Shown: in pieces, positions 493 to 58,214 of the stretch
Layout of the letters: each line of letters begins with the position of its first letter
How positions within the stretch are numbered: position 1 is the stretch's first letter
Source of the DNA: Candidatus Omnitrophota bacterium
GTDB lineage: Bacteria; Omnitrophota; Gorgyraeia; Zapsychrales; Fredricksoniimonadaceae
Assembly (NCBI GenBank): GCA_015232565.1
Contig: JADFZK010000010.1
Span: forward strand, 987-64,986
Reading direction: 5' to 3'
DNA: 64,000 bases
Position numbers and translations under genes: made by a program
The notes under the pieces: generated by a model
Seen by the model: only the letters and a program-made list of their open reading frames with translations
Told to the model about the DNA's origin: nothing
The model's database searches: none

Positions 493-622
493 GCTTGTAA
501 TTATAAAGTAGAACTTTAGTTTGTCAAGAGCAAAAAACCAGCCGCGGCCGACCTTGCCCCAGTCCCCGCCAGGGGATGTCGGATACGAAAATGATTCAAT
601 CTCTCGATCCGCTAAACAAGGA

Positions 623-12296: not shown

Positions 12297-13687
12297 TACA
12301 GCTCTCCCCTGGCCAGGCACTGCAATTGCCGGGCCACCACCAGCTCTTCGCCCGCAAACAAGGTGCGCATATCAAAATATAAAGCGTTAGCCTTGACCCG
12401 GCAGAACACCGAAGGCAAGCCGGCCCTGAGATATTCCGCCGCCGCTTCCACTCCCGGCAAGCCGGCTTCGGCCTGAGCAAAACTGACCCGCACCACCCGG
12501 GTGGGTATGCCCTCATCGGGCAAGGACCCGCTGCCAACATACGCCACATCATCTTCCACCACCGCCGTAACCCCGGGCTCGGCGGCCAGGGCCCGCACAA
12601 GGACCGCCGCCCGCGCATCCAGCTCCGGGCGGGACACACTTAACATCTGGTAGAAAGGCAAAGCCTCGCGGTAAGTGTCATTTACAAAATGCAATAAGGT
12701 GGCCTCCAGCGCCGCCAGGGTAAGCTTGCACACCCGGAACATCCGCGCAAAAGGATTCCGGCGTATGCGCTCGATATATTCTTTTTTACCGCAAATGATC
12801 CCCGACTGGGGGCCGCAGATCAGTTTGTCGCCGCTAAAACACACCACTGCCGCTCCGGCGGATAACGAGGCCCGCACCAGCGGCTCATCGGCCAGGCCAA
12901 AGCCCGACAGCGGCACCAGCGACCCACTGCCGATATCGTCTATTACCGGCAGGCCCTTCTGCCGCCCCAGCCCGCACAGGCCGGCGATATCCGGCACGCC
13001 GGCAAAACCGCGCACCCGGAAATTGGAAGTATGCACATGGATCAAGGCGCCGGTATTCTCGTTGATCGCCCGCTCATAATCATGCAAATGCGTGCGGTTG
13101 GTGGTGCCGACCTCGCGCATGCTGACCTGGCTTTGGGCCATCACATCCGGCATGCGGAATTCTCCGCCGATCTCAATAAGCTGGCCGCGGCTGATGATCA
13201 CCTGCCGGCCTGCCGCCAGGGTATTAAGCACCAGCATGGTAGCCGCCGCGTTATTGTTCACCACCGTTGCGGCCTCACAACCGGTCAGCTCGACCAGCAA
13301 CCGCTCCACTTTTTCCTCACGCAAAGAACGTTTCCCGGAAGCCAGCCCGGTCTGCAGGACCGAATAGGCCCCCATCCCGCCCAGCGCCGCCACCGCCTCC
13401 CGGCATAATGGAGAACGCCCCAGCCCGGTGTGCAGTAAAACGCCGGCCGCATTTACCGCCGCACGCCCCTCGGGAGCCGCCAGGCGCGTGAGCCGCTTGC
13501 GCAAACCGGCGGCCAGTTCACCATCCCCGGGAATACCGGCCAACGCCCCCGCATTTATCCGGGCGCGCAGGCCATCGAGCAAAGCGCGCAATTCCAGCTT
13601 GACCGCGCCATTGCCAAATTCCCGGCCCAGCGCGCGCACCGCATCGAGTTCCAATAATGCGGACACTGCCGGGATCTGCTTTAATAA
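12296..13687 (-). CDS. selA: L-seryl-tRNA(Sec) selenium transferase SelA (start uncertain, probably non-ATG)
   Basis: The motifs VVNNNAAA, LIEIGGEFRMPDVM, EVGTTNRTH and SFSGDKL are SelA signatures, including the PLP-lysine region. The first 41 codons of the listed ORF (12296..13810) overlap tRNA-Sec, so the real start must lie at or below 13687. A GTG at 13669 is one candidate. Confidence 0.85.
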   Translation of the reverse strand, partial: LLKQIPAVSALLELDAVRALGREFGNGAVKLELRALLDGLRARINAGALAGIPGDGELAAGLRKRLTRLAAPEGRAAVNAAGVLLHTGLGRSPLCREAVAALGGMGAYSVLQTGLASGKRSLREEKVERLLVELTGCEAATVVNNNAAATMLVLNTLAAGRQVIISRGQLIEIGGEFRMPDVMAQSQVSMREVGTTNRTHLHDYERAINENTGALIHVHTSNFRVRGFAGVPDIAGLCGLGRQKGLPVIDDIGSGSLVPLSGFGLADEPLVRASLSAGAAVVCFSGDKLICGPQSGIICGKKEYIERIRRNPFARMFRVCKLTLAALEATLLHFVNDTYREALPFYQMLSVSRPELDARAAVLVRALAAEPGVTAVVEDDVAYVGSGSLPDEGIPTRVVRVSFAQAEAGLPGVEAAAEYLRAGLPSVFCRVKANALYFDMRTLFAGEELVVARQLQCLARGEL

Positions 13688-13782
13688 TGGCGGAGGTGTA
13701 TGGGAATCGAACCCACCAGGGGCTTTATCAGCCCCGCGACAGTTTTGAAGACTGCGAGCATCACCAGACACTGAACACCTCC
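13688..13782 (-). tRNA. selC: tRNA-Sec (selenocysteine, anticodon UCA)
   Basis: The minus-strand sequence is GGAGGTGT...CTTCAAAAC...GGTTCGATTCC...ACACCTCCGCCA. It has an 8-bp acceptor stem, a TCA anticodon, a long variable arm, a G discriminator and CCA, and is 95 nt long. Confidence 0.85.
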
Positions 13783-13922
13783 ACAATGTGCCAATTCTCC
13801 GGTCCCACAATGGCCGGGAGAAGTTAATTTATACCAACTGAATAATTTGTTCCGTTACGCTTATACCGCACTGCTGATACCCCGGCTTGAGCGCCATTCC
13901 CGATGGCGCGCAAATTGGTCGT

Positions 13923-23123: not shown

Positions 23124-23708
23124 ATGAAGACTTACAACCAGACCACGGCGGCTTGTTATATTTACACTTTCAAGAAGGGCCTGCTCTCTGCTTTGGCCCA
23201 TGACCTGAAGATCCAAGTTTTTAAGTTTGAGATAAAAACCACTGGCAGTACGAAGGATACCGCGGACTGGAAAAACATTGAGGCCAGGTTTGATGCCGCC
23301 AGCCTACGCACTGTTTGCGCCATGAAGGACGGCGCGCGCTCTCCGGCAAAACTGTCGGATCAAGACAAGCGCGATATTGACCGGAACATCATTAATGCGG
23401 TTTTACACTCGCAGGAATTTCCCGGCATCACCTTTCGCTCCAGCAGTATTACCCGGCGAAAATCCGGCGTGGTTATCAAAGGCGCACTGACCATTTGCGG
23501 CCAAACCCGCACCATTACTCTCCCGGTCCAGGAATTAAATACCTGTTATCGCTCCGAACTGGTCATCGACCAGCGCGACTTTGGCATCCAGCCCTTCAGC
23601 GCCTTAATGGGAGCAATGCAAATTAAGCCGGAGATCATCGTGCGGATCGAGCTGGGTAAGGTTACGGCGAAGGCACCGCTATCGGAGCATTGTCCGACAG
23701 ACCCATAA
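23124..23708 (+). CDS. YceI-like periplasmic/lipid-binding domain protein
   Basis: ITFRSSSI...GVVIKGALTICGQTRTITLPV resembles the conserved core of the YceI family. The 3' end overlaps the convergent giant gene by 47 nt. Confidence 0.5.
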   Translation: MKTYNQTTAACYIYTFKKGLLSALAHDLKIQVFKFEIKTTGSTKDTADWKNIEARFDAASLRTVCAMKDGARSPAKLSDQDKRDIDRNIINAVLHSQEFPGITFRSSSITRRKSGVVIKGALTICGQTRTITLPVQELNTCYRSELVIDQRDFGIQPFSALMGAMQIKPEIIVRIELGKVTAKAPLSEHCPTDP

Positions 23709-26700
23709 ACTCTGGCAAGGCCACCAGCAATGGACTGATATCAACAATTATCGGCGCAAGGCCCACAGAACTTTGTAATTGCCGGATCATCGCCGGATCA
23801 AGATCAAATTTAACGCCTGGCCCTTCACCCTCCAACCGGAGATCGAGCTTGTCCCGGGCCAGATCAATACCGCCCACCTCGTCAATGAGCCCTACGGCTG
23901 GTGCACCCGCCATCGAGCTGTCAAACGGGACAAGATAAGCCTTGGCCGCACCAGTTGAATCCAGGTAGTACTTCCCACCCAGATAGCCGCCGATCTTGTC
24001 CAGGCCGTAATCCACTTCCTGTTTTCCATACCGGTTTTCAACAAAACCTCCCGAACCAAAATACTTCCCATGCCCCGGCTGGCCGATAAGAAAGCGCCTT
24101 GCGCCAATATGTTGGGCGAATTGCCGTGCATACTCGACCATGCCACTGCCCACCGCGTTCATTAAAGGCTCGATGCGCTCATAATCAGCATTGATCTCCA
24201 GGTTCTGGATCACCAGGCTGCCGTCCGTGGCGATATACAACCACGCCGCGGCCATGGTCTTTTGCGTATCTTCATCAATGACCTCAAGGACATTCAGCCC
24301 TTCATCGATCAGCCGGTCCATCATCGCATCCGGATATTGATTGGAATTCATCCCCAAACAGCAATTGGTAAAATCCCCGATAAACAAATCGTGCCCAGGA
24401 TTACGCAGGATCGGCCTGACCAAAAAATGCCGACGCTGTTTCCCAAGATCCTTTTGATATTCCGGATTATCCATCCTCGCCTGGAGCGTGGCAATACGCT
24501 CGCCCAAATGCGTGACCATTTCCAGCAGAGGAACATTGTGCTGAACATTCTCTGCTGAAACCAGCCTGCTCTGTATTGCTAACAGCATTTTCAGATTAGT
24601 ACGCTCCGCGATCGCCGAAACGATATCGCGCTTCTTTGCAGCGCCCACCACCCTAATGGCTGACACCAGCCCCCGAGGATCCCTAACAGCCGCCAGGCCG
24701 CTCTGTTTTAAGAACTGCATCAACGCCTCACGCTGGTCAGGCTCCAGCTCAGCATTCAATGTATTCACAATGTAATTCGCCACCACCCCGGCATCAGCCA
24801 CCGGGTCGTACTCTTGCATGGAATTCTCATGATACAGAAAAGCCCCTTCCGGCATTCTGCTGTTTCCGGCTCTGCCTAACCAGCGCTCAACATCGATCCC
24901 CGCACCAGCCAGAGCCTCACGCACCAACTTGTTGTGCTGTGCGATCAACTTTCCCTGTTCATTCGCCTGCTCGGTGTCTTCTATAAAAACCCAGAACCGC
25001 CCCTGCAACATGGCCGCTACCAACGCCCGAAACCGCTCATATTTCTCCGGCGTATTTCCCTTTATAAATAACAAAGCATCCCGGATCCGGGAAAGATAAG
25101 GCATATATAAACTTTGCCCCGCCTCCGCCGAAACTGCTTCGGCGGGAACTTCAAGATAACTGGCGAGCTCACCCATGAACAAGCCCTCCAGGTGCTTCGC
25201 CAGATCCGTAACGCTCATTGGCTCTGACAGGGCGTTGAGTATTTCTACGCAACGCCGGCCTTTCCCCAGATCAATAAACCCCGCCATCGTGTTAATGACT
25301 TTAAATAATGTCGTCATATCTACCCGAAAAGCCTTTCGCGAAATCTTTTCGTGCTCCACCCGCATTCGTTCCAGCACACCGCGCAAAGCCTGCATAGCCG
25401 CCCCATTGCGCAGAAAACTTTGTTTGCTTCCCAGAAACCTGACCACTACCGGCACGCCACCATTATTCTTCAGGGAAGCAGTAATATATTGCGCGCCTTG
25501 TCCGGGCAAAAAAGCCTCCAAAGCGCCCACCAGCGGCAGATATTCCCTCTGAAACACATCTCGGCTGATCTGGCGATCCTCGGAGGATCCTTTGTTCGCT
25601 TCATCCAAAGCCGACACAACATCCGTTAGCAAAGCGTCTTCACGCTCCACGCTCGGCACATCGAGACCAGACACCCAATCAAGAACATATGCATTGCCGA
25701 GCACCAAAAGCCCCCGGCGATCCCAGAACTCATACTGCTTTATTGCTTCAGGCCCCGTCTGGCCTTGCTCAACCATTCTCAGGCAAAGCGCTCCTAGTGC
25801 ATTTACAATAGCGCATTGTACAACCATCCTGGCACTCTTCAGTCGGAATTCCAGATCACCGATTGTCATTCGACCCTGCTCAACCTCCCTTATGTAAAGC
25901 AGGGTCAACGCATTCCCGATATTACGCAACGCCTCTGAATCATACTCGACCTTCTCAAGCGCCTCCATATCAACAATTGCCATCTTCCCGAGCTTGATGC
26001 GAAGCGTGTTTAGCGCATTCCTGAACGCAGGCTCTATAAGTGAATCATTGGCGCTCTTTTCCGCACGAGCCTCAAAAGCCTCCATTGTCATTTGCCCTTG
26101 TTCCACCCTCCTCAGGTAAAGCGTCCCCAGCGTAAGCGCAATCGCACACCGCACATTTACCGCTTCAATTTTATACTCGGACTCCAAAGCCTCTATAGTC
26201 AATTTTTCTTGCTCAACCAGGCTTATGTACAGAGCGATCAACGCCTCATGGTTCGCCAGCCTTAACTCTGAATCACCCAGTGTCCTCAGACGACTCTCCA
26301 GACCATCTTTGGTCCATCGGCCTTGCTCGATCAAATGCAAATAGATCAACACCAACCCATTCATGATCGCCCTGCGCACCTTCCAATCTTCTTCCGTCAT
26401 TAAGCGTAATTCTAAAGCCTCCTTGGTCGTCTGACCCTGCACCACCATCTTTAAGTAAAGCGAGCCCGAACCCTTTATGATCTGCGGCACTACATCCAGA
26501 TTTGGCTCACGCTTCAGGAAAGCCTCCATAACCTCCGCTGACACTTGTCCTTGTTCGAGCTTCCTTAAGTAAAGCTTACCCAGCAATTCAAGCGCTTGCT
26601 GAAGACTTTGATTGCCTTCTACCGCCCTCCAACGGTTTTCAAACATATCCAAGGTCATCCGGCCTTGCTCGACCATCTTCTCGTCAAACATTAGCACCAC

Positions 26701-28419
26701 ATCAACAAGCGCACGCTCCACTGCGGAATCATGCTCTTTATTAATACGGGCCCTTAAAACATCCAAAGAGATCGCCCGGCCTTGCTTGACCATCCTCGAA
26801 TATAGCAAGCCCAGCGCATGCACAACCGCTTGCCGCCCATATCGATTGTCAACCTCCAGGCGAGCCTCTAATGCGCCAATCGTCATTGTTCCTTCTTCAA
26901 CCATATTTAAATAGTGCACACCCAACGCATTCACGACAACGTGCCGCAAATACACATTCTCCAGGCGAGCTTCTAATGTGCCGATCGTGATTTCGTTTTG
27001 CTCGACACTCTTCACATAATGAAGGCCCAACACGTTCTCGATCGCGTCCTTCACGGCCTGACCCCCACTAGCACTCATCAGGCGGGCCTCTAAAGAATCT
27101 ATTGTCAACAGGCCTTTCTCGACCATCTTTGAATAAATTGCAGTCAGCACAGCCACCAATGCTTTGTTCACAAGCGAATACGCTCTGTTTGGCTGAGACT
27201 CCAGGGCGATCAGTTTCTTAAAGAAATTTTCCGTTTTATCAGGACGGGCTGTTTGTCCGGCGTCAACATTCATCTGCGCACCATCTATCATTGCCATATC
27301 TATTTTCACAACGACCATGGTATGGCTAGACGAACCTGCATCAAATTTAGCGCGATCCCTGGTTGTACGATAAACCAGCGGATCAACAATACCGGAGAAA
27401 CCCACGCCCCCGGAGAAATACTTCCGCGGGACCGCTTGCTGAGCGGCCGGATCAAGATCGTCCTTTATATAATTGAATGAACCCTTCCTGAACGCCTCAA
27501 CATATTGAGCCCAAATCTGCTCCTTCTCCTTCCTGTTCTCAATATCCACGCCGCCAGTCTTCCTTTGGTCAACATAGGCCCCGCCAAAGACGGTCTCCCT
27601 GACCTTGTCTTTATACCAAACCGCCAGGATCAGCGCAGAATAGACCTGACGTAATTGCGCAAAGTTTTTGCCTTCGTTGATCTCATTTTCAAGTATCGGG
27701 ATCACTACTTCGCGTAGGATGTTTTTGGCGATTTCGTTTGGGGCAATTGTGGGGTTTGGCGTTGAGGTAGAGACCTGGGTTGCAAAATAATCCGTTTCGA
27801 GCATTACTTTTAGGCGGCTTTTTATTACATAGGCCGCCTTTTGGTTTTCGTACACTACTGCTTTTTCCGGTACGATCCATACTTTGTTGAAGGTATCGAG
27901 CGGGATATCGGTGGTGCCGTATTTGGCATATACGGCCTTATAGACCCGGGCCCAGAAAGCCCTGCCGATTTCTCCTTCCGGATAAATAACCGATGCCGTA
28001 ACCTGCTTAAGCAGATAATCCTGGGCCAAAACATCACGCCCCATCTCCGTAACACCAAAAGCCTCCGGGACAATACGCTCGCGCTCGTATGGAGAAAGGT
28101 TTACCCAAAGATCTTTCTCGGGAACAGTGACCGAAGTCAGGAAGTACTTTATCAGGCGGGACGATTCCGCTCTCAACTCCTCGGCCGATGCACTGGAATC
28201 GCCTTGATCAAGTATAAATTCCAAACGGAACGGATTTTCTCTATCAACCTTAATACCTTTTAACAAAGGCGCCTGGAAGGCCGAGCTCAAACCCACCATC
28301 TGGCCGGGCGCGGGCAAAAGAACACTCTCCGCACGAACACCTGTTGCGGTTAGCAGAAAACAGATCAAGGTAACAAAAGCCACCCACTTACGCACGCACA
28401 CCCCCCCTACAACTGCCAC
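23662..28419 (-). CDS. Giant (1585 aa) secreted protein with about 11 tandem ~37-aa alpha-helical repeats (HEAT/PBS-lyase-like?)
   Basis: It has a signal peptide. A central array of repeats follows the form [VR].AI.NALG.LYLR.VEQG.MT.EALEARL. The C-terminal domain is Gly/Tyr-rich (GHGKYFGSGGFVENRYGKQEVDYGLDKIGGYLGGKYYLD). Confidence 0.6.
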   Translation of the reverse strand: MAVVGGVCVRKWVAFVTLICFLLTATGVRAESVLLPAPGQMVGLSSAFQAPLLKGIKVDRENPFRLEFILDQGDSSASAEELRAESSRLIKYFLTSVTVPEKDLWVNLSPYERERIVPEAFGVTEMGRDVLAQDYLLKQVTASVIYPEGEIGRAFWARVYKAVYAKYGTTDIPLDTFNKVWIVPEKAVVYENQKAAYVIKSRLKVMLETDYFATQVSTSTPNPTIAPNEIAKNILREVVIPILENEINEGKNFAQLRQVYSALILAVWYKDKVRETVFGGAYVDQRKTGGVDIENRKEKEQIWAQYVEAFRKGSFNYIKDDLDPAAQQAVPRKYFSGGVGFSGIVDPLVYRTTRDRAKFDAGSSSHTMVVVKIDMAMIDGAQMNVDAGQTARPDKTENFFKKLIALESQPNRAYSLVNKALVAVLTAIYSKMVEKGLLTIDSLEARLMSASGGQAVKDAIENVLGLHYVKSVEQNEITIGTLEARLENVYLRHVVVNALGVHYLNMVEEGTMTIGALEARLEVDNRYGRQAVVHALGLLYSRMVKQGRAISLDVLRARINKEHDSAVERALVDVVLMFDEKMVEQGRMTLDMFENRWRAVEGNQSLQQALELLGKLYLRKLEQGQVSAEVMEAFLKREPNLDVVPQIIKGSGSLYLKMVVQGQTTKEALELRLMTEEDWKVRRAIMNGLVLIYLHLIEQGRWTKDGLESRLRTLGDSELRLANHEALIALYISLVEQEKLTIEALESEYKIEAVNVRCAIALTLGTLYLRRVEQGQMTMEAFEARAEKSANDSLIEPAFRNALNTLRIKLGKMAIVDMEALEKVEYDSEALRNIGNALTLLYIREVEQGRMTIGDLEFRLKSARMVVQCAIVNALGALCLRMVEQGQTGPEAIKQYEFWDRRGLLVLGNAYVLDWVSGLDVPSVEREDALLTDVVSALDEANKGSSEDRQISRDVFQREYLPLVGALEAFLPGQGAQYITASLKNNGGVPVVVRFLGSKQSFLRNGAAMQALRGVLERMRVEHEKISRKAFRVDMTTLFKVINTMAGFIDLGKGRRCVEILNALSEPMSVTDLAKHLEGLFMGELASYLEVPAEAVSAEAGQSLYMPYLSRIRDALLFIKGNTPEKYERFRALVAAMLQGRFWVFIEDTEQANEQGKLIAQHNKLVREALAGAGIDVERWLGRAGNSRMPEGAFLYHENSMQEYDPVADAGVVANYIVNTLNAELEPDQREALMQFLKQSGLAAVRDPRGLVSAIRVVGAAKKRDIVSAIAERTNLKMLLAIQSRLVSAENVQHNVPLLEMVTHLGERIATLQARMDNPEYQKDLGKQRRHFLVRPILRNPGHDLFIGDFTNCCLGMNSNQYPDAMMDRLIDEGLNVLEVIDEDTQKTMAAAWLYIATDGSLVIQNLEINADYERIEPLMNAVGSGMVEYARQFAQHIGARRFLIGQPGHGKYFGSGGFVENRYGKQEVDYGLDKIGGYLGGKYYLDSTGAAKAYLVPFDSSMAGAPAVGLIDEVGGIDLARDKLDLRLEGEGPGVKFDLDPAMIRQLQSSVGLAPIIVDISPLLVALPEFMGLSDNAPIAVPSP

Positions 28420-34764: not shown

Positions 34765-35150
34765 GGCGCAAAGGTAAAGCCTTTTGGCTCGCTGATGATC
34801 CTTTCCGCCGCGTTCATAGAATTTAGAGCACCGCTACGGATAAACCAACCCTCATTATACAATCCGACGGGGTTTGAGTCGGATGGCAATAGTTGTAAAA
34901 GATCCAACGCGTTAGACATACCCTCCGCGCTGCTCTAAATTCATGAACCCGGATAATGCACCAACACATAAACGACATGCACCCAGCCGGGTAACCTTGG
35001 CTAACATAAAACTCTCAAATCGTTGGCCAAGCTTGAGTTTTATGAGCCAACCCTTCGGGCGGATTTTTCTATTGAAAAATCCGGGATTAACGCCCTTGTA
35101 AACACAGTGGCGGGGATCATATGCGAGCCAAAAGGCTTTACCTTTGCGCC
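34765..35150. repeat. Non-coding element bounded by perfect 28-bp terminal inverted repeats, with internal hairpins (MITE-like or structured RNA)
   Basis: ggcgcaaaggtaaagccttttggctcgc at 34765..34792 is the exact reverse complement of 35123..35150. There is a second internal near-inverted pair (aatttagagcaccgc / gcgctgctctaaatt) and a hairpin at about 34995..35050. No convincing ORF is present. Confidence 0.5.
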
Positions 35151-50198: not shown

Positions 50199-50312
50199 CC
50201 CGGCAATATCGATCCCCGGCTTATAAAAACAATGGATCCAGACAGTAGTCCCAAAGTAAGGCCGGATCTCATAATATTCGGTTAAAAATGTTGAAATTGT
50301 TGAATCCTTCCG

Positions 50313-50466
50313 CTAGTGTGGTGATTCACATATCTCTTTACATTTGAATCACCACACTGGAGCAATGGAGCAATCGAAAATGGAGAAATATTAAAACATT
50401 TGGCTCCATTGCGGTCTATTTTCGATTTTCCAATGCTCTTCAAATGTAAAGAAGCGTCAGACACAC
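50313..50466. repeat. 154-bp imperfect-palindromic repeat element, copy 1
   Basis: It has a 13-bp stem hairpin (gtgtggtgattca N16 tgaatcaccacac) plus an extended imperfect palindrome. It is more than 95% identical to 57919..58072. Confidence 0.75.
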
Positions 50467-50539
50467 AACTCTAAATAATACATGTTTAGCGAATAGAGAG
50501 ATTGAATCATTTTCGCTAAATATATACACTAAACAAGCG

Positions 50540-51307
50540 CTAATATCTTAAATATTTGCGACACAGGCCGGTTAAATACAGCGGAACCGTGAATATGCCA
50601 ATGAAAGATTCCATGACCGCTACGATCTTGGTAAAACCTACCGGAGACATGTTCTCGGGGCCCACCTTGGTATAACTGGTAAAGCTGAAATATATAGCCT
50701 GAATCAGGCTGGGCTCAACTATCACTCCATCCCGGCTCAAATGCCCGTAGGTATAAAAAATCGCGCAGATCAATATGAAAACCAAACCAAACCCTACCGT
50801 ACGATGCGGCCGCTCACCATAGCCCCATAATAAGGAAGCGAAGGTTAAGGAGATCAGGGGTATTATCCGCTTGCTGAAGAACTGCAGGTTAAAACCAATA
50901 CCCACATTGTCCTTGGTCTTTTTGGTGCGGAACAGATCCTGGATCAAAAACTGCCGGTAAGCCTCCTTGGACTTGAACAGGCACTCGGAAAGTGAAGTAT
51001 TATCATGATCGCGCTCATAGGCAATAGCGGCATACTTGTAAAGCATAGCCGAATATTCCAGGTCCCGGGAAGCCTCGGCCTCCAGAGCCGCTTCCTCATA
51101 TAGTGAAGCCACGCGATGATAAGTTTTTTCTCCCAGGATCAGAGCCCGGCTGCTGGCCGCGGCCGCCAGGCAAATAGCCGCCCGGTCATGCTTTTCCTGC
51201 CGCTGAAAAGCCTTGGCGGCTTGCAAATAACGCTCGCCGGCTTCCGCGTACTTCTCTTCACCCAGCAATTCGTGGGCTTCCTGTTCCAGGGTCTTGCGCT
51301 CGGGCAT
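50540..51307 (-). CDS. Ion-channel-like membrane protein (Ion_trans_2-type pore region) with N-terminal helical cytoplasmic domain
   Basis: The C-terminal AIYFSFTSYTKVGPENMSPVGFTKIVAVMESFIGIFTVPLYLTGL resembles a 2-TM pore module with a degenerate selectivity filter. Confidence 0.4.
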   Translation of the reverse strand: MPERKTLEQEAHELLGEEKYAEAGERYLQAAKAFQRQEKHDRAAICLAAAASSRALILGEKTYHRVASLYEEAALEAEASRDLEYSAMLYKYAAIAYERDHDNTSLSECLFKSKEAYRQFLIQDLFRTKKTKDNVGIGFNLQFFSKRIIPLISLTFASLLWGYGERPHRTVGFGLVFILICAIFYTYGHLSRDGVIVEPSLIQAIYFSFTSYTKVGPENMSPVGFTKIVAVMESFIGIFTVPLYLTGLCRKYLRY

Positions 51308-51309
51308 AC

Positions 51310-51642
51310 TTAAAAACTCCTTAAAGCCTCTTGATGGCTTTCGAACATTTTGAACAGCTTGTGGACCTTGGTGATCTCAAAAACATTCACGATCTTTTTG
51401 TTCACATGGCACAGGCACATACGGCCATTAACCTTGCCCAGGTTCTGGCACACCTCGATCAAAGCGGCAATGCCCGAACTGTCAATGAACGGCACCTTGG
51501 CAAAATCTATAAGCACCTTGGCATTCCGCTCTTTTAAAATGGGCTTGAAGGTTTCCTTGAACTTGTGGGCGCTTTCCATATTAAGCTCACCCTCCAGCAC
51601 AATAAGCCGGATATCATTGATCTTTTCGAATTTAATGTCCAC
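51310..51642 (-). CDS. STAS-domain anti-sigma-factor antagonist (SpoIIAA/RsbV-like)
   Basis: This 110-aa protein has the motifs IDFAKVPFIDSSGIAALIE, with the conserved phosphorylatable Ser in the DSSG context. Confidence 0.8.
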   Translation of the reverse strand: MDIKFEKINDIRLIVLEGELNMESAHKFKETFKPILKERNAKVLIDFAKVPFIDSSGIAALIEVCQNLGKVNGRMCLCHVNKKIVNVFEITKVHKLFKMFESHQEALRSF

Positions 51643-52051
51643 CGGATCGGTCTCCTGTTAATGGCATAACCATTTTAATAGTGCGGCCGCCATTGGAAAA
51701 ATCTACCGCACCCATGGTCTGCCGGATCAAATATATTCCCCGGCCATGATTCTTGCCTATATTCTCCGGAGCGGTAGGATCGGGCACCGCGCCGGGGTCA
51801 AACCCCTGGCCCTGATCGGTAATTTCCACGGCCAGGCAGCGGGGATCGGCCGCTATCTTAACCCACACCGCCAAATGCTTGTTACATTTATTGCCATGCT
51901 TGATGGCGTTTATCAACGCCTCCTGCAAACACAACTTCAGGCCGAATACCTGATCGTCATTGAGCCCCAGCGGCCGCAAACGCCGCAGCCACGCCTCAAT
52001 AAAAACAGGCGCCCGGTCGGGATCGGAAGGCAGTTTTTCCTCAATTAGCAT
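51632..52051 (-). CDS. Anti-sigma regulatory factor Ser/Thr kinase (RsbW/SpoIIAB-like, HATPase_c)
   Basis: The motifs EALINAIKHGN and GRGIYLI fit a GHKL ATPase fold. The gene overlaps the STAS gene. Confidence 0.75.
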   Translation of the reverse strand: MLIEEKLPSDPDRAPVFIEAWLRRLRPLGLNDDQVFGLKLCLQEALINAIKHGNKCNKHLAVWVKIAADPRCLAVEITDQGQGFDPGAVPDPTAPENIGKNHGRGIYLIRQTMGAVDFSNGGRTIKMVMPLTGDRSGGH

Positions 52052-53951
52052 CTGGGCTCATTTTGATCTTGACCGCCACCAGGGTAATGTCGTCCTGTTG
52101 TTTTAATTTACCGCGGAACCGGATCACGTCCTGCGCGATCGCCTGCACCAGCTGATGCGCATCCATTTCCCGCCGGGCTTCGACGAAAGCACTTAAACGC
52201 TCCAGGCCGTACATCTCGCCTTTACTGTTGGCCGCCTCGGTAACGCCGTCCGTATAATAAATAAAGATATCCTGCGGGTCAAATTTTTTCTCCCCGCCCG
52301 AATAAACACCATTCATCATCCCTAACGGCAGGCCGTCCTCCACATCCAGGCTCACTCCGGGCCGGCCCCGGCCAAAATATAAAACCGGCATATGCCCGCC
52401 ATTGGCATACTGCATTACCCGGCGCTGCAGGTCGAAACGGGAATAAAAAACGGTCACAAAACGGTCCGAGGTGTGCTCGCGCACGATCTTCTCGTTAAGA
52501 TCCCACAAAGCTTTTTCCGGCCGCACCCCCGGTTGGGCAAAAAACTTGAACGAACTCACCGCCATGGCCATAAAAAGGCTGGCGGGGAAACCCTTGCCCA
52601 TAACGTCGCCGATCATCACGCCCAGATCATTCGCACCCGAAGAATTAACATCATACAGATCGCCGCCCACTTCCCGGGCGGTGAGCATGAGTGCGCCAAC
52701 ATCAACACCGGCGATCGCGGGCAATTCCGCCGGCAAGAAACTGTCCTGGATCTGTTTTGCCAGCCGAAACTCATTGTCCAGGACGATCTTTTCCTTAAAA
52801 TGCAAGACCGACCGGTACAACAGGCCCACCACATAAAGGGCCGCACAAACCACCAGCGGATAAAAAACATCGATCCACAGCCCCAGCTTGTTAAAGAGCA
52901 TATAGGCGATCACCAGAAAGATCGCGGCCACTTCCAGCAGGATACCGAAAGCCAGCGCCGGTGAAACCTTAACACAAGCCAGGACAACCAGGGCGCAAAG
53001 CCCAAAAAGGATGCCCAGGTTCTGCCAGCGCGATGCGCGGGTAATAAATTTGCCATTAACCAGGGAATTAAAGATGTCGGCGTGAATGCCAATGGAAGGA
53101 TACAAAGGCTCCAGCGGACTGGGATGCATATCGGTGGTCCCGTCGGCGGTCAGGCCCACCAGGCAAACCTTGCCCTTAAAGACCGCCAGGTCCAGCCGGG
53201 GCTTACCCGCCGCCGCGGCAGCTGCGGCCGGGGTGGACTGAGCCGCATAAGACTGTAAAATGTCGGCATAAGAATAATGTGCAAAAGAATCCGCCCAGGG
53301 GCCGGCAAAATTAACCAGCAAATTGCCCTGCTCATCGAGAGGCACCTTCCGAACGGGGGCCTGGCGCTGGAGAAAATCCAGCCCTACCTGATACGCCAGC
53401 GACGGATACTGCCGGCCCTGATAATCCACGAATAAAGGCACCCGGCGGAACTTGCCGTCGCTGTCGGGAATAACATTTATATAGCCCGTCCCGCGAGCCG
53501 CACGCGCCAGCTTTTCCTGGTTCTGCGCGGCCAGCCGCACCGCCTTGGGCACAGCACTGTCGGAGCTATCGGCCAACTCAAAAACATAGGGTAGATACAC
53601 ATTGCCGGCCAGGCGCATGGCCAGGCGAAACTCGTCGTCGCCGCGCTGGGGCTCGCTAAAAAACATGTCGAACACCACCGCCCGGGCGCCGGCGCGGGAA
53701 AGCGCCTCCACCAGTTTGGCGTGATACCCGCGGTCCAGCGGGAAAAGCCCCAGGGATTTGATCGTATCGTTATCGATCTCGACAATAACCACCTGGTCAG
53801 TGCGCTCGATAGCCGGGCGCAAACGGAAGCGCAGGTCCAGCGCATCGAGCTCGTTCTTCTCGAACACCCGGAAATACGATCCGCCCCATAAAGCCAGGGC
53901 AACCAGGACCAGAAGCAGGACCAGTAATTTTTCTTTGTAGTGGTTTATCAT
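52041..53951 (-). CDS. CHASE2-sensor PP2C/SpoIIE-type phosphatase (RsbU-like partner-switching input)
   Basis: The N-terminus has a periplasmic CHASE2-like region with TM segments. The C-terminal PP2C domain includes GGDLYDV and GDVMGKG. Confidence 0.75.
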   Translation of the reverse strand: MINHYKEKLLVLLLVLVALALWGGSYFRVFEKNELDALDLRFRLRPAIERTDQVVIVEIDNDTIKSLGLFPLDRGYHAKLVEALSRAGARAVVFDMFFSEPQRGDDEFRLAMRLAGNVYLPYVFELADSSDSAVPKAVRLAAQNQEKLARAARGTGYINVIPDSDGKFRRVPLFVDYQGRQYPSLAYQVGLDFLQRQAPVRKVPLDEQGNLLVNFAGPWADSFAHYSYADILQSYAAQSTPAAAAAAAGKPRLDLAVFKGKVCLVGLTADGTTDMHPSPLEPLYPSIGIHADIFNSLVNGKFITRASRWQNLGILFGLCALVVLACVKVSPALAFGILLEVAAIFLVIAYMLFNKLGLWIDVFYPLVVCAALYVVGLLYRSVLHFKEKIVLDNEFRLAKQIQDSFLPAELPAIAGVDVGALMLTAREVGGDLYDVNSSGANDLGVMIGDVMGKGFPASLFMAMAVSSFKFFAQPGVRPEKALWDLNEKIVREHTSDRFVTVFYSRFDLQRRVMQYANGGHMPVLYFGRGRPGVSLDVEDGLPLGMMNGVYSGGEKKFDPQDIFIYYTDGVTEAANSKGEMYGLERLSAFVEARREMDAHQLVQAIAQDVIRFRGKLKQQDDITLVAVKIKMSPDAN

Positions 53952-53960
53952 AAAGGCGCG

Positions 53961-55031
53961 TTACGCAGCGGTTTGAACATACTCGGAATAGCTCACGTCC
54001 TTCAAGCTGACGAAAACCGCCATAGCCTTAACCAGCTTTAACTGCCGGTATTCTTCCTGGGTGATCTCCACATGGAGGCGCTCGCCGGTATCGGCCTTGA
54101 GGTTAACCTTGACCAGCGTGCCGGCGGGATTAATGAACTCCACCACCGCCTTGAGCGAAGTGCCCTTGCCGGGCCCGCGCGAAAGCCGGAACTGGTTGGG
54201 GCGCACATACAGCTTGGCCGCCTTGGGCTGGTCCACCGAAAGGCCCGGCACTTCCAGCGCCGTGTCGCCGATGATCGCCTTGCCCTCGGCCAGCCGGCAG
54301 TGAAAGAAATTAACATTGCCCAGGAAGTTCAGGACGAAAGCATTGACCGGATTATGATAAACGTCCTCCGGCGTGCCCACCTGCTCGATGCGCCCCTGGT
54401 TCATGACCACAATGCGGTCGGCCACCTCCAGCGCTTCTTCCTGGTCGTGCGTAACAAATAAAGTGGTAATGTGCGATTCGTCGTGGAAACGCCTCAGCCA
54501 CAGGCGCAGTTCCTTGCGCACCTGCGCGTCCAGCGAACCAAAAGGCTCGTCCAGCAAAAGCACGCGCGGCTTGACCGCCAAAGCCCGGGCCAGGGCGATC
54601 CTCTGCCTTTGCCCGCCGGACAATTGCCAGGGATAACGGTCCACCACCCACTCCAGCTGGATAAGCTTGAGCAGTTCCGTAACCTTCTCGCGGATCTTTT
54701 GCTCCGACGGCCTAACCGGCCGCGGCTGGACCCGCAAGCCGAAAGCGATATTCTCAAAGACCGTCATATGCCGAAAAAGCGCGTAGTGCTGGAACACAAA
54801 ACCCACTCCGCGATCCTTCACCTTCTGATCGCGGGCGTCCTGGCCGCTAAAAAGCACCTGGCCGGCATCATGAAAATCGAGCCCCGCCACGATGCGCAAT
54901 AGCGAGGTCTTGCCCGAACCCGAAGGCCCCAGCAAAGCCAACAGTTCGCCGTTCTCTACCTTAAGGCTGACATTATTCAACGCCTTGAACTGGCCAAAAT
55001 TCTTGTGGATATTCCTGACTTCGATGCTCAT
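53961..55031 (-). CDS. cysA: Sulfate/thiosulfate ABC transporter ATP-binding protein
   Basis: Walker A is GPSGSGKT and the ABC signature is LSGGQRQR. The C-terminus has a TOBE domain. Confidence 0.9.
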
Positions 55032-55852
55032 GCCGTATGCCCCCGACGGATAACCGCCTCAATAACAGTTTTAGCGACCAGCGTAACAATGGCCAGCAAC
55101 ACCAGAATGGATGCCGCCGCAAAAGCCGCGGCCGACTGGTATTCATTATACAATATCTCCACGTGCAAAGGCAGGGTATTGGTGAGCCCCCGGATATGTC
55201 CGGAAACCACCGACACCGCGCCGAATTCGCCCATAGCGCGCGCATTGCACAAAATAATGCCGTAAAGGATACCCCAGCGGATATTCGGCACCGAGACCAT
55301 CCAGAAAGTCTTCCAGCCGCTGGCCCCCAAAGTAAGCGCCGCTTCTTCCTCCTCGTTACCCTGCGAGCGCATTACCGGAATAAGCTCGCGCGCCACCATC
55401 GGGAACGTTACGAATATCGTCGCCAGGATTATACCCGGCAAAGCAAAGATCACGTGGATATTATGCGCCCTCAGCCACGGCCCCAAAGCGCCCTGGGCGC
55501 CAAAGATCAAAACGAAGATCAGCCCGGCGATCACCGGCGAGACCGAAAGCGGCAGGTCAATAAGCGAGAGCAAAAGGTCCCGGCCTTTAAAATCGAACTT
55601 GGCAATGGCCCAGGAAGCCGCCACGCCAAACACCAGATTCAACGGCACCGCCACCAGCGCCGTTATGACCGTCAGGCGCATAGCCGCCAAAGCATCCGGA
55701 TGCGCCAGCGCCTGCAAATACACCACCCAGCCCTTGGAAAAAGCATGATAAAAAACACAGATCAGCGGCAGGACAATAAAAAGGCCAAAGAATCCCAGCG
55801 CGATCCCAATGAACAATCTCCTGATAACAACCGGTTCGGTGCGTGTGTTCAT
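55028..55852 (-). CDS. cysW: Sulfate ABC transporter permease CysW
   Basis: It has the ABC permease fold with an EAA-like loop and is ATGA-coupled to cysA. Confidence 0.85.
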
Positions 55853-55859
55853 GCCAGGC

Positions 55860-56699
55860 TCAAACCTTTCCCAGATTCTTCGAGGTCAACCATTGAAAAT
55901 AATTCGCCGCCGCCAGCAGGACAAAAGAGATCAACAGCATGCCGATGGCAATGGCCGTTGCACCCGCGTAATCGTATTGTTCCAGTTTGGTCATAATAAG
56001 CAAAGGCGCGATCTCGGTCTTCAGGGGCATATTCCCGGCAATAAAGATGACCGACCCGTATTCCCCGATCGCCCGGGCAAAAGCCAGCGTTACCCCGGTC
56101 AGCAAGGCCGGAAAAATAACCGGTAGAATAACCAGCCGCACAGTCTGCCAGCGGTCCGCGCCCAGCGAAGCGGCGGCTTCCTCGATCTGCGGGTCGAGGT
56201 CTTCCAGCACCGGCTGAACAGTGCGCACCACAAAAGGCAACCCAATAAAAGTTAAAGCCACCGTGATCCCGAACGGCGAAAAAGCGCCCTTGATACCCAG
56301 CACATTCAGGAATTGCCCGATCCAGCCGGTGGGCGCGTACAATTCGGTAAGCGTAATGCCCGCCACCGCCGTAGGCAAAGCCAGCGGGAAATCCACCAGG
56401 GCATCCACTATGCGCTTGCCCGGAAAAGAATAGCGCACCAGCACCCACGCCACAATGGAACCGAACACCGCATTCACGCACGCGCTGGCAAAAGCCGTCC
56501 CGAAACTTAACCGGTAAGCCGCCAGGGTCCTGTCGGCCGTGATCACGCTCCAGAACTGCGCCATTCCGAGCGACGAGCTCTTGATAAATAGCATGGCCAA
56601 CGGAATGAGCACGATCAGGCTCAAATAGAATATCGTAAAACCCAGGGATAAAGAAAACCCCGGCAGGATGCTTTTCTTGACGAAACCCGGCTTCATAAA
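55860..56699 (-). CDS. cysT: Sulfate ABC transporter permease CysT/CysU
   Basis: It is an ABC permease. The start is refined to MKPGFV at 56699 to avoid overlapping sbp. Confidence 0.85.
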   Translation of the reverse strand, partial: FMKPGFVKKSILPGFSLSLGFTIFYLSLIVLIPLAMLFIKSSSLGMAQFWSVITADRTLAAYRLSFGTAFASACVNAVFGSIVAWVLVRYSFPGKRIVDALVDFPLALPTAVAGITLTELYAPTGWIGQFLNVLGIKGAFSPFGITVALTFIGLPFVVRTVQPVLEDLDPQIEEAAASLGADRWQTVRLVILPVIFPALLTGVTLAFARAIGEYGSVIFIAGNMPLKTEIAPLLIMTKLEQYDYAGATAIAIGMLLISFVLLAAANYFQWLTSKNLGKV

Positions 56700-56703
56700 A
56701 GAA

Positions 56704-57726
56704 TCATTTCTTTTGATAGATCTGGTCGAAGACGCCATTGTCCGCAAAATGCGTTTGCTGGGCCTTCTGCCAGCCGCCGAAAACCGCGTCTATCGTTATA
56801 AGCTCGATCTGTTTGAATTGCCCGGCATATTTCTGCACCACCTCCGCCAGGCGCGGGCGATAATGATTCTGCGCCGCGATCTCCTGGCCTTCGGGAGTAT
56901 AAAGATATTCCAGGTACGCCTGGGCTAACGAACGGGTGCCATGCCGGTCCACATTACCATCCACCAAGGCTACTGCCGGTTCGGCCAGGATGCTCAGTGA
57001 AGGCGCCACGATCTCATACCCGTCGGCGGAGAACTGGTTCACCACCAGGTACGCCTCGTTCTCCCAGGCCAGCAGGACATCGCCGATCTTGCGTTCCACA
57101 AAAGTAGTGGTCGACCCGCGCGCGCCGGAATCGAGCACCGGCACATTCTTGTACAGCGCGGCCACAAATTCCCGGGCCTTGGCCTCGTCATTGTTAAAGT
57201 TCTTAAGCGCATATCCCCACGCCGCGAGGTAATTCCAGCGCGCCCCGCCGGAGGTTTTGGGGTTGGGAGTAATCACACTGACCCCGGGCTTTACCAGGTC
57301 GTTCCAATCCTTGATCTGCAAAGGATTGCCCTTGCGCACCACAAAAACAATAGTCGAGGTGTACGGCGCGCTGTTGTCCGGCAAGCGCGTCTGCCAATCC
57401 ACCGGCAGAAGGCCGGAATTCTTCGCTATAGCGTCAATGTCGTAGGCCAGGGCCAGGGTGACCACATCGGCCTCCAGGCCGTCGATCACCGAGCGGGCCT
57501 GTTTGCCGCTGCCGCCATGCGACTGCTGGACCGTAACCGCCGCACCGGTTTTTTTCTGCCAGAAATCCGTAAAAGATTTATTGAAAGCCTGGTAAAGCTC
57601 CCGGGTAGGATCATAAGAAACATTCAGCAAAGCCAAGCCGCCTTCCGCCCGCGCCGGCGCCGCAAAAGAAGCCCCCCCGACCACCAGCACCGCCGCCACC
57701 AGCACTCCCAGCCATTTTACGTTCAT
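56704..57726 (-). CDS. sbp: Periplasmic sulfate-binding protein
   Basis: It is near-collinear with E. coli Sbp: [66 protein letters not shown] and [20 protein letters not shown]. Confidence 0.95.
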
Positions 57727-57918
57727 ACCCGCCCTTTCTGGTTATAAAACATCAGCTCCACCACTCCGCCGCCATACTGTACAAAATATTTTAACAATTT
57801 TATTCCTTTAATCATAACTGTCCAGCCAAATAAAGTTCCGGCCACTCCCCAAGCCGCCCCAACGCTCTTAATTTTTCATTTTGAATTGTAGTGCAAGTGG
57901 CAAGCAAATATCGGAAGG

Positions 57919-58072
57919 CTAGTGTGGTGATACACATATCTCTTTACATTTGAATCACCACACTGGAGCAATGGAGCAATCGAAAATGGAGAAATAATTA
58001 AACATTTGGCTCCATTGCGGTCTATTTTCGATTTTCCAATGCTCTTCAAATGTAAAGAAGCGTCAGACACAC
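57919..58072. repeat. 154-bp imperfect-palindromic repeat element, copy 2 (direct orientation relative to copy 1)
   Basis: It is near-identical to 50313..50466. The mismatches are gattcacat vs gatacacat and aaatattaaaac vs aaataattaaac. Confidence 0.75.
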
Positions 58073-58075
58073 TAC

Positions 58076-58122
58076 ACTAGTGTGGTGATTCATGATTTTC
58101 TTAACATTTGAATCGCCGCACT
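58076..58122. repeat. Degenerate third copy of the hairpin module
   Basis: ctagtgtggtgattcatgattttcttaacatttgaatcgccgcac retains the stem arms with 2 mismatches. Confidence 0.5.
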
Positions 58123-58214
58123 GGAACTGGCTATTGCAATAAAAAAACCGAACAAACTTAAACGGGCTATGCTACAAGAACAATTGTCCAATTTTGATCA
58201 GACCATTACCTGGT

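Follow-up and report, generated by a model that had tools for sequence, protein, structure and literature searches.

Short palindromic repeats beside the magnetosome gene cluster of an Omnitrophota genome: probable MITE-like elements with an IS630-type target

The tetranucleotide of REP elements in E. coli is GTAG. Correia elements (NEMIS) of Neisseria show a TA duplication, and both these and the ERIC/IRU elements of enterobacteria can sit in 5′ untranslated regions, where they alter expression. TA is likewise duplicated by elements of the IS630 family, and the account of their target choice in PMC2170065, which cites Tenzen & Ohtsubo 1991, gives the preferred site as a TA within 5′-CTAG-3′. 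The repeats described here lie in a stretch of 64,000 nucleotides (the window), which is part of a magnetotactic Candidatus Omnitrophica MAG, and they adjoin its magnetosome gene cluster. A literature search on the repeat motif returned nothing relevant.

Comparison of the window with itself gave a direct repeat of 162 nt (50312–50473 and 57918–58079), the copies being 97% identical with five substitutions, which bears out the >95% identity that a first-pass annotation of this DNA had claimed for two palindromic copies. The identity ends exactly at TA dinucleotides on both sides, and the element is about 160 nt (161–162) long in the window (Table 1). Hairpin 1, at the left end, has the form gtgtggtgattca-N16-tgaatcaccacac, as had been described; the arms are exact in copy 1 and have one left-arm mismatch in copy 2 (gtgtggtgatAca). 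Hairpin 2 of copy 1 contains the motifs GGAGCAATGGAGCAATCGA and GCTCCATTGCGGTCTATT, which are conserved in the family described below. The terminal inverted repeats of both copies start directly after the TA, with ends of the form TA-GTGTGGTGAT, and are 35 nt long, imperfect and gapless, with 25–26 of the 35 positions complementary (71–74%). The degenerate third hairpin reported earlier was also recovered: the right CTAG of copy 2 (58077–58080) doubles as the start of a partial third unit, which folds weakly (z −2.0) and which we infer to be older than the full copies. The window thus carries two full copies and one fragment in 64 kb.

On either strand the element folds much more stably than shuffled sequence (z about −6). 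Its only ORF encodes 60–64 aa, the translation of which had no homologue among 5.8 billion proteins. No terminator-like site was found inside either copy on either strand, and no promoter-like site inside the element. Searches with Rfam 15 gave only generic microRNA-hairpin models for the element, at 12–29 bits against thresholds of 50–96 bits, no match in the relatives' loci, and in the window a tRNA-Sec only. Terminator, promoter carrier, Rfam RNA and island att repeat were each considered as identities for the element and rejected. Beside copy 1 lies a 33-nt sequence (Table 1), part of which (TATTC...GCTAAACAT) recurs upstream of ApbE in a related locus (L003).

Table 1. Positions of the repeat copies, their parts and the neighbouring genes in the window
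Feature	Position	Strand	Remarks
Element copy 1	50313..50474	+	left flank CTAG 50313-50316, right flank CTAA 50471-50474
Putative duplicated TA, copy 1	50314-50315 and 50472-50473		
Hairpin 1, copy 1	50315..50358	+	14-bp arms 50315-50328 / 50345-50358, loop 16 nt
Hairpin 2 (long, central), copy 1	50359..50438	+	8-nt repeats: GGAGCAAT GGAGCAAT CGAAAAT GGAG ...
Right terminal inverted repeat, copy 1	50439..50473	+	25/35 complementary to left end 50314-50348
Element copy 2	57919..58080	+	CTAG flanks left and right
Partial third unit	58077..58125	+	hairpin 1 only; 84% identical to full copies, 49 nt
33-nt segment next to copy 1, on its upstream side	50483..50515	-	inverted recurrence at 586-618, 31/33 identical
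Bracketed block	50540..57726	-	sbp, cysT, cysW, cysA, CHASE2-SpoIIE phosphatase, HATPase_c_2, STAS, Ion_trans_2 (Pfam)
ApbE (FAD:protein FMN transferase), 311 aa	49362..50297	-	probable ATT start 50297-50295
Shine-Dalgarno-like GGAAGGA	50305..50311	-	7 nt before ATT, directly after element end
In-frame TAG closing ApbE frame upstream	50313..50315	-	target TA + native G

Family members in other genomes were sought by a metagenome scan in which the query was a 19-mer from hairpin 2. The scan recovered copies of the same architecture at L089 (two copies), L096, L097 (one plus a half copy) and L102. The family architecture consists of (C/G)TAG, hairpin 1, GGAGCAATGGAGCAATCGA ... GCTCCATTGCGGTCYATTG and an inverted-repeat right end ...GGCTAG, with element lengths of 161–236 nt. 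One member sits in a Candidatus Eisenbacteria-like genome, and a second subfamily, in the same Eisenbacteria locus (L106, 7655–7800), shares the architecture but has a different sequence. Outside the window the copies occupy spacers beside unrelated housekeeping genes, in both orientations relative to these genes; the 1.8-kb L089 holds its two copies in opposite orientation, 570 nt apart. In L089b and L097 the terminal inverted repeats define the ends as they do in the window copies. The hairpin 2 motifs GGAGCAATGGAGCAATCGA ... GCTCCATTGCGGTCYATT are nearly unchanged across the family, and the terminal hairpin varies by paired substitutions. The internal hairpin is more conserved than the ends across two phyla, in part an ascertainment effect of having used the hairpin-2 19-mer to retrieve the relatives. 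Hairpin 2 has one case of a compensatory change, from A-U to U-A in L089b.

The left-end pattern TAGTGTGGTGATN{12,18}CATTTGAATC had no matches in the genome and metagenome collections, and a viral-contig scan and a plasmid BLAST gave no match to the element. A scan for the architecture (CTAG + hairpin + GGAG) was uninformative, with more matches in shuffled sequence than in the real window, and a formal pair count on hairpin 1 was dropped, MAFFT having set the two subfamilies one register apart. The element is of an ordinary kind, and as far as these checks reach its family has not been described before; in uncultivated phyla the family can serve to mark recent local transposition.

TA stands at both ends of every complete copy, the right-hand TA being either duplicated or element-borne. 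The left junction reads C|TA|G in eight of nine copies; at the right junction TA is followed by G in four of five and by A in the fifth. At the Eisenbacteria-like locus the stop codon of bmp, a TAG, is where the element begins (gaatcc-TAG|tctgg), and at two empty sites (L110 and L111) gaatc(g/c)-TAG is followed by unrelated sequence with no element. Since the bmp TAG is present in these empty relatives, the (C)TAG is target DNA. For the window copies there is no exact empty site, because the relatives are only 71–75% identical to the window in ApbE; in the ion-channel/ApbE spacer, they become homologous to the window again from (TA)GCGGA(A)GGATTC, exactly where the element stops. The element is short (below about 500 bp), has no coding capacity and is bounded as a unit by terminal inverted repeats, as in MITEs, and its junctions agree with TA insertion mainly within CTAG, the preference known from the literature for IS630/Tc1-mariner elements. 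The copies and the fragment are therefore likely to be short, non-coding, non-autonomous MITE-like mobile elements with an IS630-type target.

Copy 1 abuts the ribosome-binding region of ApbE, a gene that the first-pass annotation had described as lacking its N-terminal ~35 aa, with an in-frame stop seven codons upstream. Both statements proved wrong. Upstream of the GTG at 50198 the frame is open for 38 codons, to a first in-frame stop at the TAG 50315–50313, and these codons encode the conserved ApbE N-terminus in the ortholog alignment; the extended ORF spans the Pfam profile of ApbE in full (1–266/266). The alignment, which had been suggested as a check, places the start of the orthologs (M-x-(D)STIST) at the position equivalent to that of the extended ORF, essentially the outcome named beforehand as contrary to truncation. 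The distance of 115 bp between copy 1 and ApbE holds for the mechanical GTG-start ORF only, and not for the gene as read here. NCBI protein P0001 (311 aa, 100% identical) begins at the ATT 50297–50295. A canonical start codon is absent in the window and also in L003 and L004, which have no element copy; upstream of ApbE these two relatives have the same layout of GGAGGA, 7 nt and ATT, and the upstream stop is common to both (TAA in L003 at the window's TAG 50315–50313). Over the first 40 codons, the window and L003 differ by 13 synonymous and 9 non-synonymous codons, and of the 31 base changes 21 fall on third positions. Judged by these sequence comparisons, ApbE is full length, not truncated, and its translation probably starts at ATT 50297–50295. 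The probable ATT start would explain why gene callers truncate this ApbE; the NCBI product for L003 and L004 has 294 aa, without the conserved N-terminus. This ApbE, beside the magnetosome cluster, should not be labelled a pseudogene. Insertion of the element inside the ApbE coding sequence was also considered and rejected, with no signal-peptide-like fragment upstream of either copy.

The element might instead be of the REP/REPIN type, with hairpin 1 and its 5′ (C/G)TAG as a REP unit and the full element as an inverted REP doublet around a linker, moved as single-stranded DNA by a RAYT tyrosine transposase without target duplication. In all members a perfect 14-bp palindrome has (C/G)TAG at its foot, the pairing of hairpin 1 stays perfect while its sequence differs between subfamilies, and L089a has GTAG, as in E. 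coli REPs; a solitary hairpin-1 unit adjoins a full copy, and copies form local clusters (window, L089 and L097). We nevertheless regard this as unlikely, given that the empty-site comparison assigns the left-end (C)TAG to the native target (the bmp stop codon), that the two ends are mirror images over 35 nt, as in ordinary terminal inverted repeats, that the two L089 copies are opposite in orientation at such a short distance, and that no RAYT gene was seen in the window or the relatives' loci. Both window copies lie upstream of operons on the same strand, which together with the strong fold and the single compensatory change in hairpin 2 would fit a shared cis-regulatory element, a structured RNA or operator coupling sbp-cysTWA with ApbE and the mam genes. 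Such a role is very unlikely: the same spacers are empty of the element in three syntenic relatives, copies at other loci adjoin unrelated genes and point either way relative to them, the 97% identity extends to the loops and so points to recent copying rather than conservation, and neither an Rfam family nor a promoter-like or terminator-like site was found in the element.

More improbable still is that the repeats bound an inserted or rearranged segment or a genomic island. The first-pass annotation was correct in the genes that it placed between the direct repeats (ion channel, partner-switching module and sbp-cysTWA, all confirmed by Pfam, with the HATPase_c_2 protein being anti-sigma kinase-like), and it read the repeats as a boundary of this 7.4-kb block and as a sign of a genomic-island context for the magnetosome cluster. 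Neither interpretation was supported. A locus search in the genome collection with ApbE matched mainly distant phyla and gave one useful Omnitrophota locus. The order cysT-cysW-cysA...CHASE2/SpoIIE-STAS-Ion_trans_2-ApbE-HTH_17-MamI-MamE is collinear in three related Omnitrophota loci (L001, L003 and L004), none of which has the element in the corresponding spacers. Because the gene order is the same in three relatives without the element, the 7.4-kb block is ancestral and not an insertion. From cysT onward the block is collinear with the relatives, and so is the point where it joins ApbE and the mam genes; synteny breaks only at the sbp/kdp side, at copy 2, where sbp and the upstream kdpE/D/C/B are not syntenic with the relatives, which speaks for a boundary, but the relatives also differ among themselves there. 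Pfam found no integrase or transposase in the window, its sole tRNA is the tRNA-Sec at 13688–13782, 36 kb away, and the composition profile has no GC step at either repeat. The conserved neighbourhood of cysTWA, partner-switching module, ion channel, ApbE, HTH regulator and mamI is a stable feature of the clade, and the repeats should not be used to place the magnetosome cluster of this Omnitrophota genome on a mobile island. The least probable explanation is an assembly artefact, in which a repeat-induced misjoin of the MAG created the second copy or the junction at copy 2. The source is a 67,996-bp MAG contig, and repeats of ~160 nt can mislead short-read assemblers; against a misjoin, the copies differ at five positions, the relatives' synteny confirms both sides of copy 1, and sbp beside cysT is a natural operon.

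We therefore return to the MITE-like element, and the earlier suggestion of a dispersed REP/MITE-like palindrome is upheld in this form by the terminal inverted repeats, the sharp ends of identity, the empty orthologous sites and the members in other genomes. Its movement would depend on a transposase supplied in trans from another part of the genome, most probably one of the IS630/Tc1-mariner type, which would cut the element at its inverted repeats; the element would then re-insert at a TA that lies within (C)TA(G), with duplication of this TA. In the window, an old copy may have inserted upstream of sbp and decayed into the 49-nt fragment, after which the younger copy 2 would have landed in the CTAG at the fragment's end. 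Its sister, copy 1, which is 3% different, would have entered the spacer that separates the ion-channel gene from ApbE, just before the ribosome-binding site of ApbE. These insertions would have left the 7.4-kb block in place and ApbE unbroken. Counting against a MITE, neither the window nor ~1.5 Mb of the relatives' loci yielded a transposase whose ends match. The (C/G)TAG at the foot of a perfect hairpin, which also resembles REP elements, and the conservation of the internal hairpin beyond the ends across phyla, which is unusual in a MITE, were likewise counted against it.

It is conceivable, if doubtful, that the element forms an undescribed class spanning phyla (Omnitrophota and Eisenbacteria-like), in which the central hairpin would be a functional module and not filler. 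Such a module could be a binding platform for the transposase or a host factor, or it could act as RNA. If the central hairpin is functional, the copies inserted ahead of the sulfate-uptake operon and just ahead of the ribosome-binding site of ApbE might alter the expression of genes beside the magnetosome cluster.

Among known systems, Correia and ERIC/IRU elements are also intergenic imperfect palindromes of about 100–160 nt, but they have no sequence similarity to this element and occur in other host phyla, and no internal promoter-like site was detected in the element. REP/REPIN (RAYT) sequences share a tetranucleotide at the foot of a palindrome (GTAG in REPs, (C/G)TAG here), strong hairpins and an extragenic occurrence as singlets and doublets, whereas here the tetranucleotide is target DNA at one empty site, and the element is 161–236 nt long with a long conserved linker hairpin and no known RAYT gene. 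The element departs from IS630/Tc1-mariner MITEs in that its left end is also a perfect local hairpin, that conservation across two phyla is higher in its internal hairpin than at its ends (in part through ascertainment), and that no partner transposase was found. It resembles them in being short, non-coding and intergenic, in its imperfect terminal inverted repeats with TA at both ends, in left junctions inside CTAG, the reported preferred target of IS630, and in new copies landing at the ends of old ones.

The palindromic element forms a 162-nt direct repeat in the window (copies 1 and 2; 97% identity, five substitutions), followed by a partial third unit, in agreement with the first-pass annotation, which had described a near-identical pair and a degenerate third hairpin. 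The core, read there as two arms around 16 nt, was exact in copy 1, whereas the corresponding stem in copy 2 has one mismatch. The inverted-repeat ends coincide exactly with the limits of identity between the two copies, and the element folds with a z of about −6 relative to shuffled sequences on either strand. No further copies were found in the 64-kb window by blastn-short or nhmmer.

Positions of the element, of features in the window and of related features in the compared loci
Feature	Position	Description
Copy 1	50312-50473	Flanked by CTAG and CTAA
Hairpin 1, copy 1	50315-50328 + 50345-50358	Left end; 14-bp perfect stem, 16-nt loop
Central hairpin (hairpin 2), copy 1	50359-50438	Long, made of 8-nt repeats
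Right end, copy 1	50439-50473	Gapless 35-nt inverted repeat of left end; 25-26/35 positions complementary
Copy 2	57918-58079	Flanked by CTAG and CTAG
Third unit	58077-58125	84% identity to the element across 49 nt; first four bases are the right CTAG of copy 2
ApbE, mechanical start	50198	GTG
ApbE, upstream in-frame stop	50315-50313	TAG
ApbE, most likely start	50297-50295	ATT
33-nt sequence	50483-50515 (-)	Directly upstream of copy 1 and ApbE
33-nt sequence	586-618 (+)	94-126 nt upstream of AAA_14 ATPase gene at window end
selB, selA, tRNA-Sec	10374-13810 (-)	One end of magnetosome region; tRNA-Sec at 13688-13782
1585-aa ORF	23662-28419 (-)	Between magnetosome genes and selenophosphate-synthetase-like gene
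50-nt inverted repeat	34765-34814 + 35101-35150	84% complementary, around 286 nt
Spacer palindromes of relatives	L003 9776-9897; L001 9857-9980	L004 has the same sequence as L003
Public ApbE calls	L003 10001-10885; L004 8847-9731	P0004, 294 aa
Second-subfamily element	L106 7655-7800	Eisenbacteria-like locus
Half copy	L097 8290-8403	Hairpin 2 3' arm and right end only

Every gene of this region is encoded on the minus strand. Along it, a partial kdpB, kdpC, kdpD and kdpE are followed by the third unit and copy 2, then by sbp, cysT, cysW, cysA, a CHASE2-SpoIIE phosphatase, a HATPase_c_2 kinase, a STAS protein and an Ion_trans_2 channel, so that the ion channel, partner-switching genes and sbp-cysTWA do lie between the copies as first annotated. 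Next come the 33-nt sequence, copy 1, ApbE, an HTH_17 regulator and the magnetosome genes (MamE-like proteases, magnetochrome proteins, two cation-efflux pairs, a TPR protein and a LemA protein), and beyond these selA, selB, tRNA-Sec and an RND efflux pump. The selenocysteine genes are near MamE-like protease, NifB/X-like and 4Fe-4S genes; the mechanical selA ORF (TTG start 13810) overlaps tRNA-Sec, so the true selA start must be further downstream. The 1585-aa ORF had no Pfam match; within it a diverged unit recurs at least 6-7 times, at intervals of 105-117 nt (about 37 aa) or multiples of these. Midway along the magnetosome gene cluster, the 50-nt inverted repeat occupies part of a 630-nt non-coding spacer; it may represent a further small mobile element or else a structured transcript.

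The 7.4-kb block between the copies was compared with the surroundings of the closest ApbE orthologs, in related Omnitrophota loci: L001 (a 247-kb ENA contig; ApbE 71% identical), L003 (GCA_015233765.1) and L004 (GCA_002753745.1; both 75%), and also L005. The order and orientation of cysT-cysW-cysA, CHASE2/SpoIIE, STAS, Ion_trans_2, ApbE, HTH_17, MamI and MamE are kept in the first three; L001 has three additional genes between cysA and CHASE2/SpoIIE, and HATPase_c_2 before STAS. L005 shows ApbE-HTH_17-MamI-MamE as far as the contig end. The element is absent from all four loci by blastn-short and nhmmer. Because these element-free relatives are collinear, the block and its junction with the ApbE/mam genes are ancestral in the clade, and the newcomer is the element, not the block. 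The proposal that the repeats mark the boundary of an inserted block or genomic island is therefore contradicted by synteny, and Pfam detected no integrase or transposase in the entire 64-kb window. All that survives of it concerns copy 2, which lies near a point of general variability: gene content upstream of cysT varies both between the window and the relatives and from one relative to another (feoAB in L003/L004, a PMT_2/TPR gene in L001). A misassembly on the kdpE side of copy 2 is an unlikely alternative, in view of the five differences between the two copies and the conserved gene order surrounding copy 1. The ion-channel/ApbE spacer of the relatives carries strongly folding palindromes of its own (dG −62 and −66 kcal/mol; z −5.4 and −6.9), unrelated in sequence to the window element; that of L003 has inverted ends GGGACTGTCG and TAATG on either flank. 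Small palindromic elements seem to have landed in this spacer more than once.

ApbE had been described as lacking about 35 N-terminal residues, with an in-frame stop 7 codons upstream. The frame is in fact open for 38 codons above the GTG, as far as the TAG, and these codons encode RKDSTISTFLTEYYEIRPYFGTTVWIHCFY, the conserved N-terminus of orthologs, which begin M-x-(D)STIST without a signal peptide; the gene is hence not truncated. The extended ORF covers positions 1-266 of the 266 of Pfam ApbE, the GTG-start ORF only 32-266. Over the first 40 codons, the window and L003 differ by 13 synonymous and 9 non-synonymous codons, with 21/31 base changes at third positions, indicating that this stretch is translated in both lineages. 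Unusually, no ATG, GTG or TTG occurs between the TAG and the GTG. The start is most likely the ATT, as judged from a strong Shine-Dalgarno-like GGAAGGA (GGAGGA in L003/L004) 7 nt before it, first eight codons nucleotide-identical to those of L003/L004, and the start of the 100% identical NCBI protein P0001 (311 aa; 'Candidatus Omnitrophica bacterium' MAG, 67,996-bp contig) at this codon. The element-free L003/L004 also lack a canonical start (TAA GCG GAG GAT TCA ACA ATT, against TAG CGG AAG GAT TCA ACA ATT in the window), and the absence of such a start thus predates the insertion or is independent of it. With no canonical start available after the upstream TAA, the public call in these two loci begins at an internal ATG (MIWVHCFY) and leaves out about 20 conserved N-terminal residues; here too ATT is likely the start.

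The two copies of the 33-nt sequence (CGAAAATGATTCAATCTCTC.AT.CGCTAAACA; 31/33 identical) are inverted and 49.9 kb apart, with no more in the window or the compared loci. L003 keeps TATTC...GCTAAACAT upstream of ApbE. The two copies may represent part of a common promoter or operator.

A left-end pattern gave zero matches in genome and metagenome collections, while a 19-mer from hairpin 2, GGAGCAATGGAGCAATCGA, matched 19 metagenome contigs. Four of these (L089, L096, L097, L102) hold the full architecture, in five full copies and one half copy; the remaining matches look like chance or coding sequence. In each, (C/G)TAG is followed by a hairpin 1 of different sequence, GCCTGGAT...ATCCAGGC, and immediately by GGAGCAATGGAGCAATCGA ... 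GCTCCATTGCGGTCYATTG; in L089b and L097 the right end, ...GCAGGCTAG, mirrors the left. Since the 19-mer is common by construction, membership is supported independently by the second motif, by CTAG and by the directly adjoining hairpin 1. The copies, 205-236 nt in length, lie in spacers beside unrelated housekeeping genes (a NUDIX-like hydrolase; bmp and an ABC ATPase; a LysR-like gene and a peptidase), in either orientation relative to these genes. A full copy lies 2.4 kb away from the L097 half copy, which has CTAG on either side. RarA of L096 shares 82% identity with the RarA of a Candidatus Eisenbacteria MAG, which places the family in at least two phyla, and the same Eisenbacteria locus with the element in place was found in four assemblies. 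This locus (L106) also carries a second subfamily of the same architecture and different sequence, with CTAG, the hairpin CCGGGAGGAT...ATCCTCCCGG and then 8-nt repeats (GGAGAAAC AGAGAAGC GGAGAGAC ...) that form a long hairpin. Across phyla the central hairpin is better conserved than the ends, partly through ascertainment bias from 19-mer retrieval, and hairpin 1 changes by paired substitutions (RNAalifold: both sides changed in 6/28 pairs); this pattern is the single feature meriting a second look. No description of the family was found: it had no Rfam 15 or plasmid BLAST match, and full-text motif searches gave no relevant result.

Homology with the region upstream of the relatives' ApbE restarts at (TA)GCGGA(A)GGATTC, right after the element end. 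In L106 the element starts at the bmp stop codon (gaatcc-TAG/tctggattg); the empty sites of two relatives read gaatcg-TAG and then a 66-nt spacer (L110) or gaatcc-TAG-cgccc (L111). As this TAG is also present without the element, the left-boundary (C)TAG is host target sequence. The left junction is C/TA/G in 8/9 copies, and the right is TA+G in 4/5 and TA+A in 1/5. A REP/RAYT element is a less likely alternative. In its favour are a perfect palindrome with the tetranucleotide (C/G)TAG at its base, a REP-like feature, and the existence of solitary hairpin-1 units; against it, the TAG at bmp comes from the host and the 35-nt inverted repeat is of an ordinary kind. A shared regulatory RNA or operator is unlikely, as the element is absent from syntenic relatives, is inconsistently oriented to neighbouring genes across the family, matches nothing in Rfam and contains no promoter-like or terminator-like sites.

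In kind, the element is an ordinary MITE-like repeat, in line with the REP/MITE-like family proposed in the first-pass annotation, without the boundary role, and the main worth of the analysis is a correction: no island boundary and no truncated ApbE. According to PMC2170065, IS630-family and Tc1-mariner elements duplicate TA, and IS630 favours TA within 5'-CTAG-3' (its reference Tenzen & Ohtsubo 1991). The right-end TA would then be the target duplication. A flanking C, TA and the element's first G recreate CTAG, making the element ends themselves targets, which would explain why copy 2 lies exactly against the third unit, probably an older fragment. With TA at either end inside CTAG, the element bears the IS630/Tc1-mariner signature, and probably derives from such elements, being non-autonomous and mobilised in trans by a transposase of that type.
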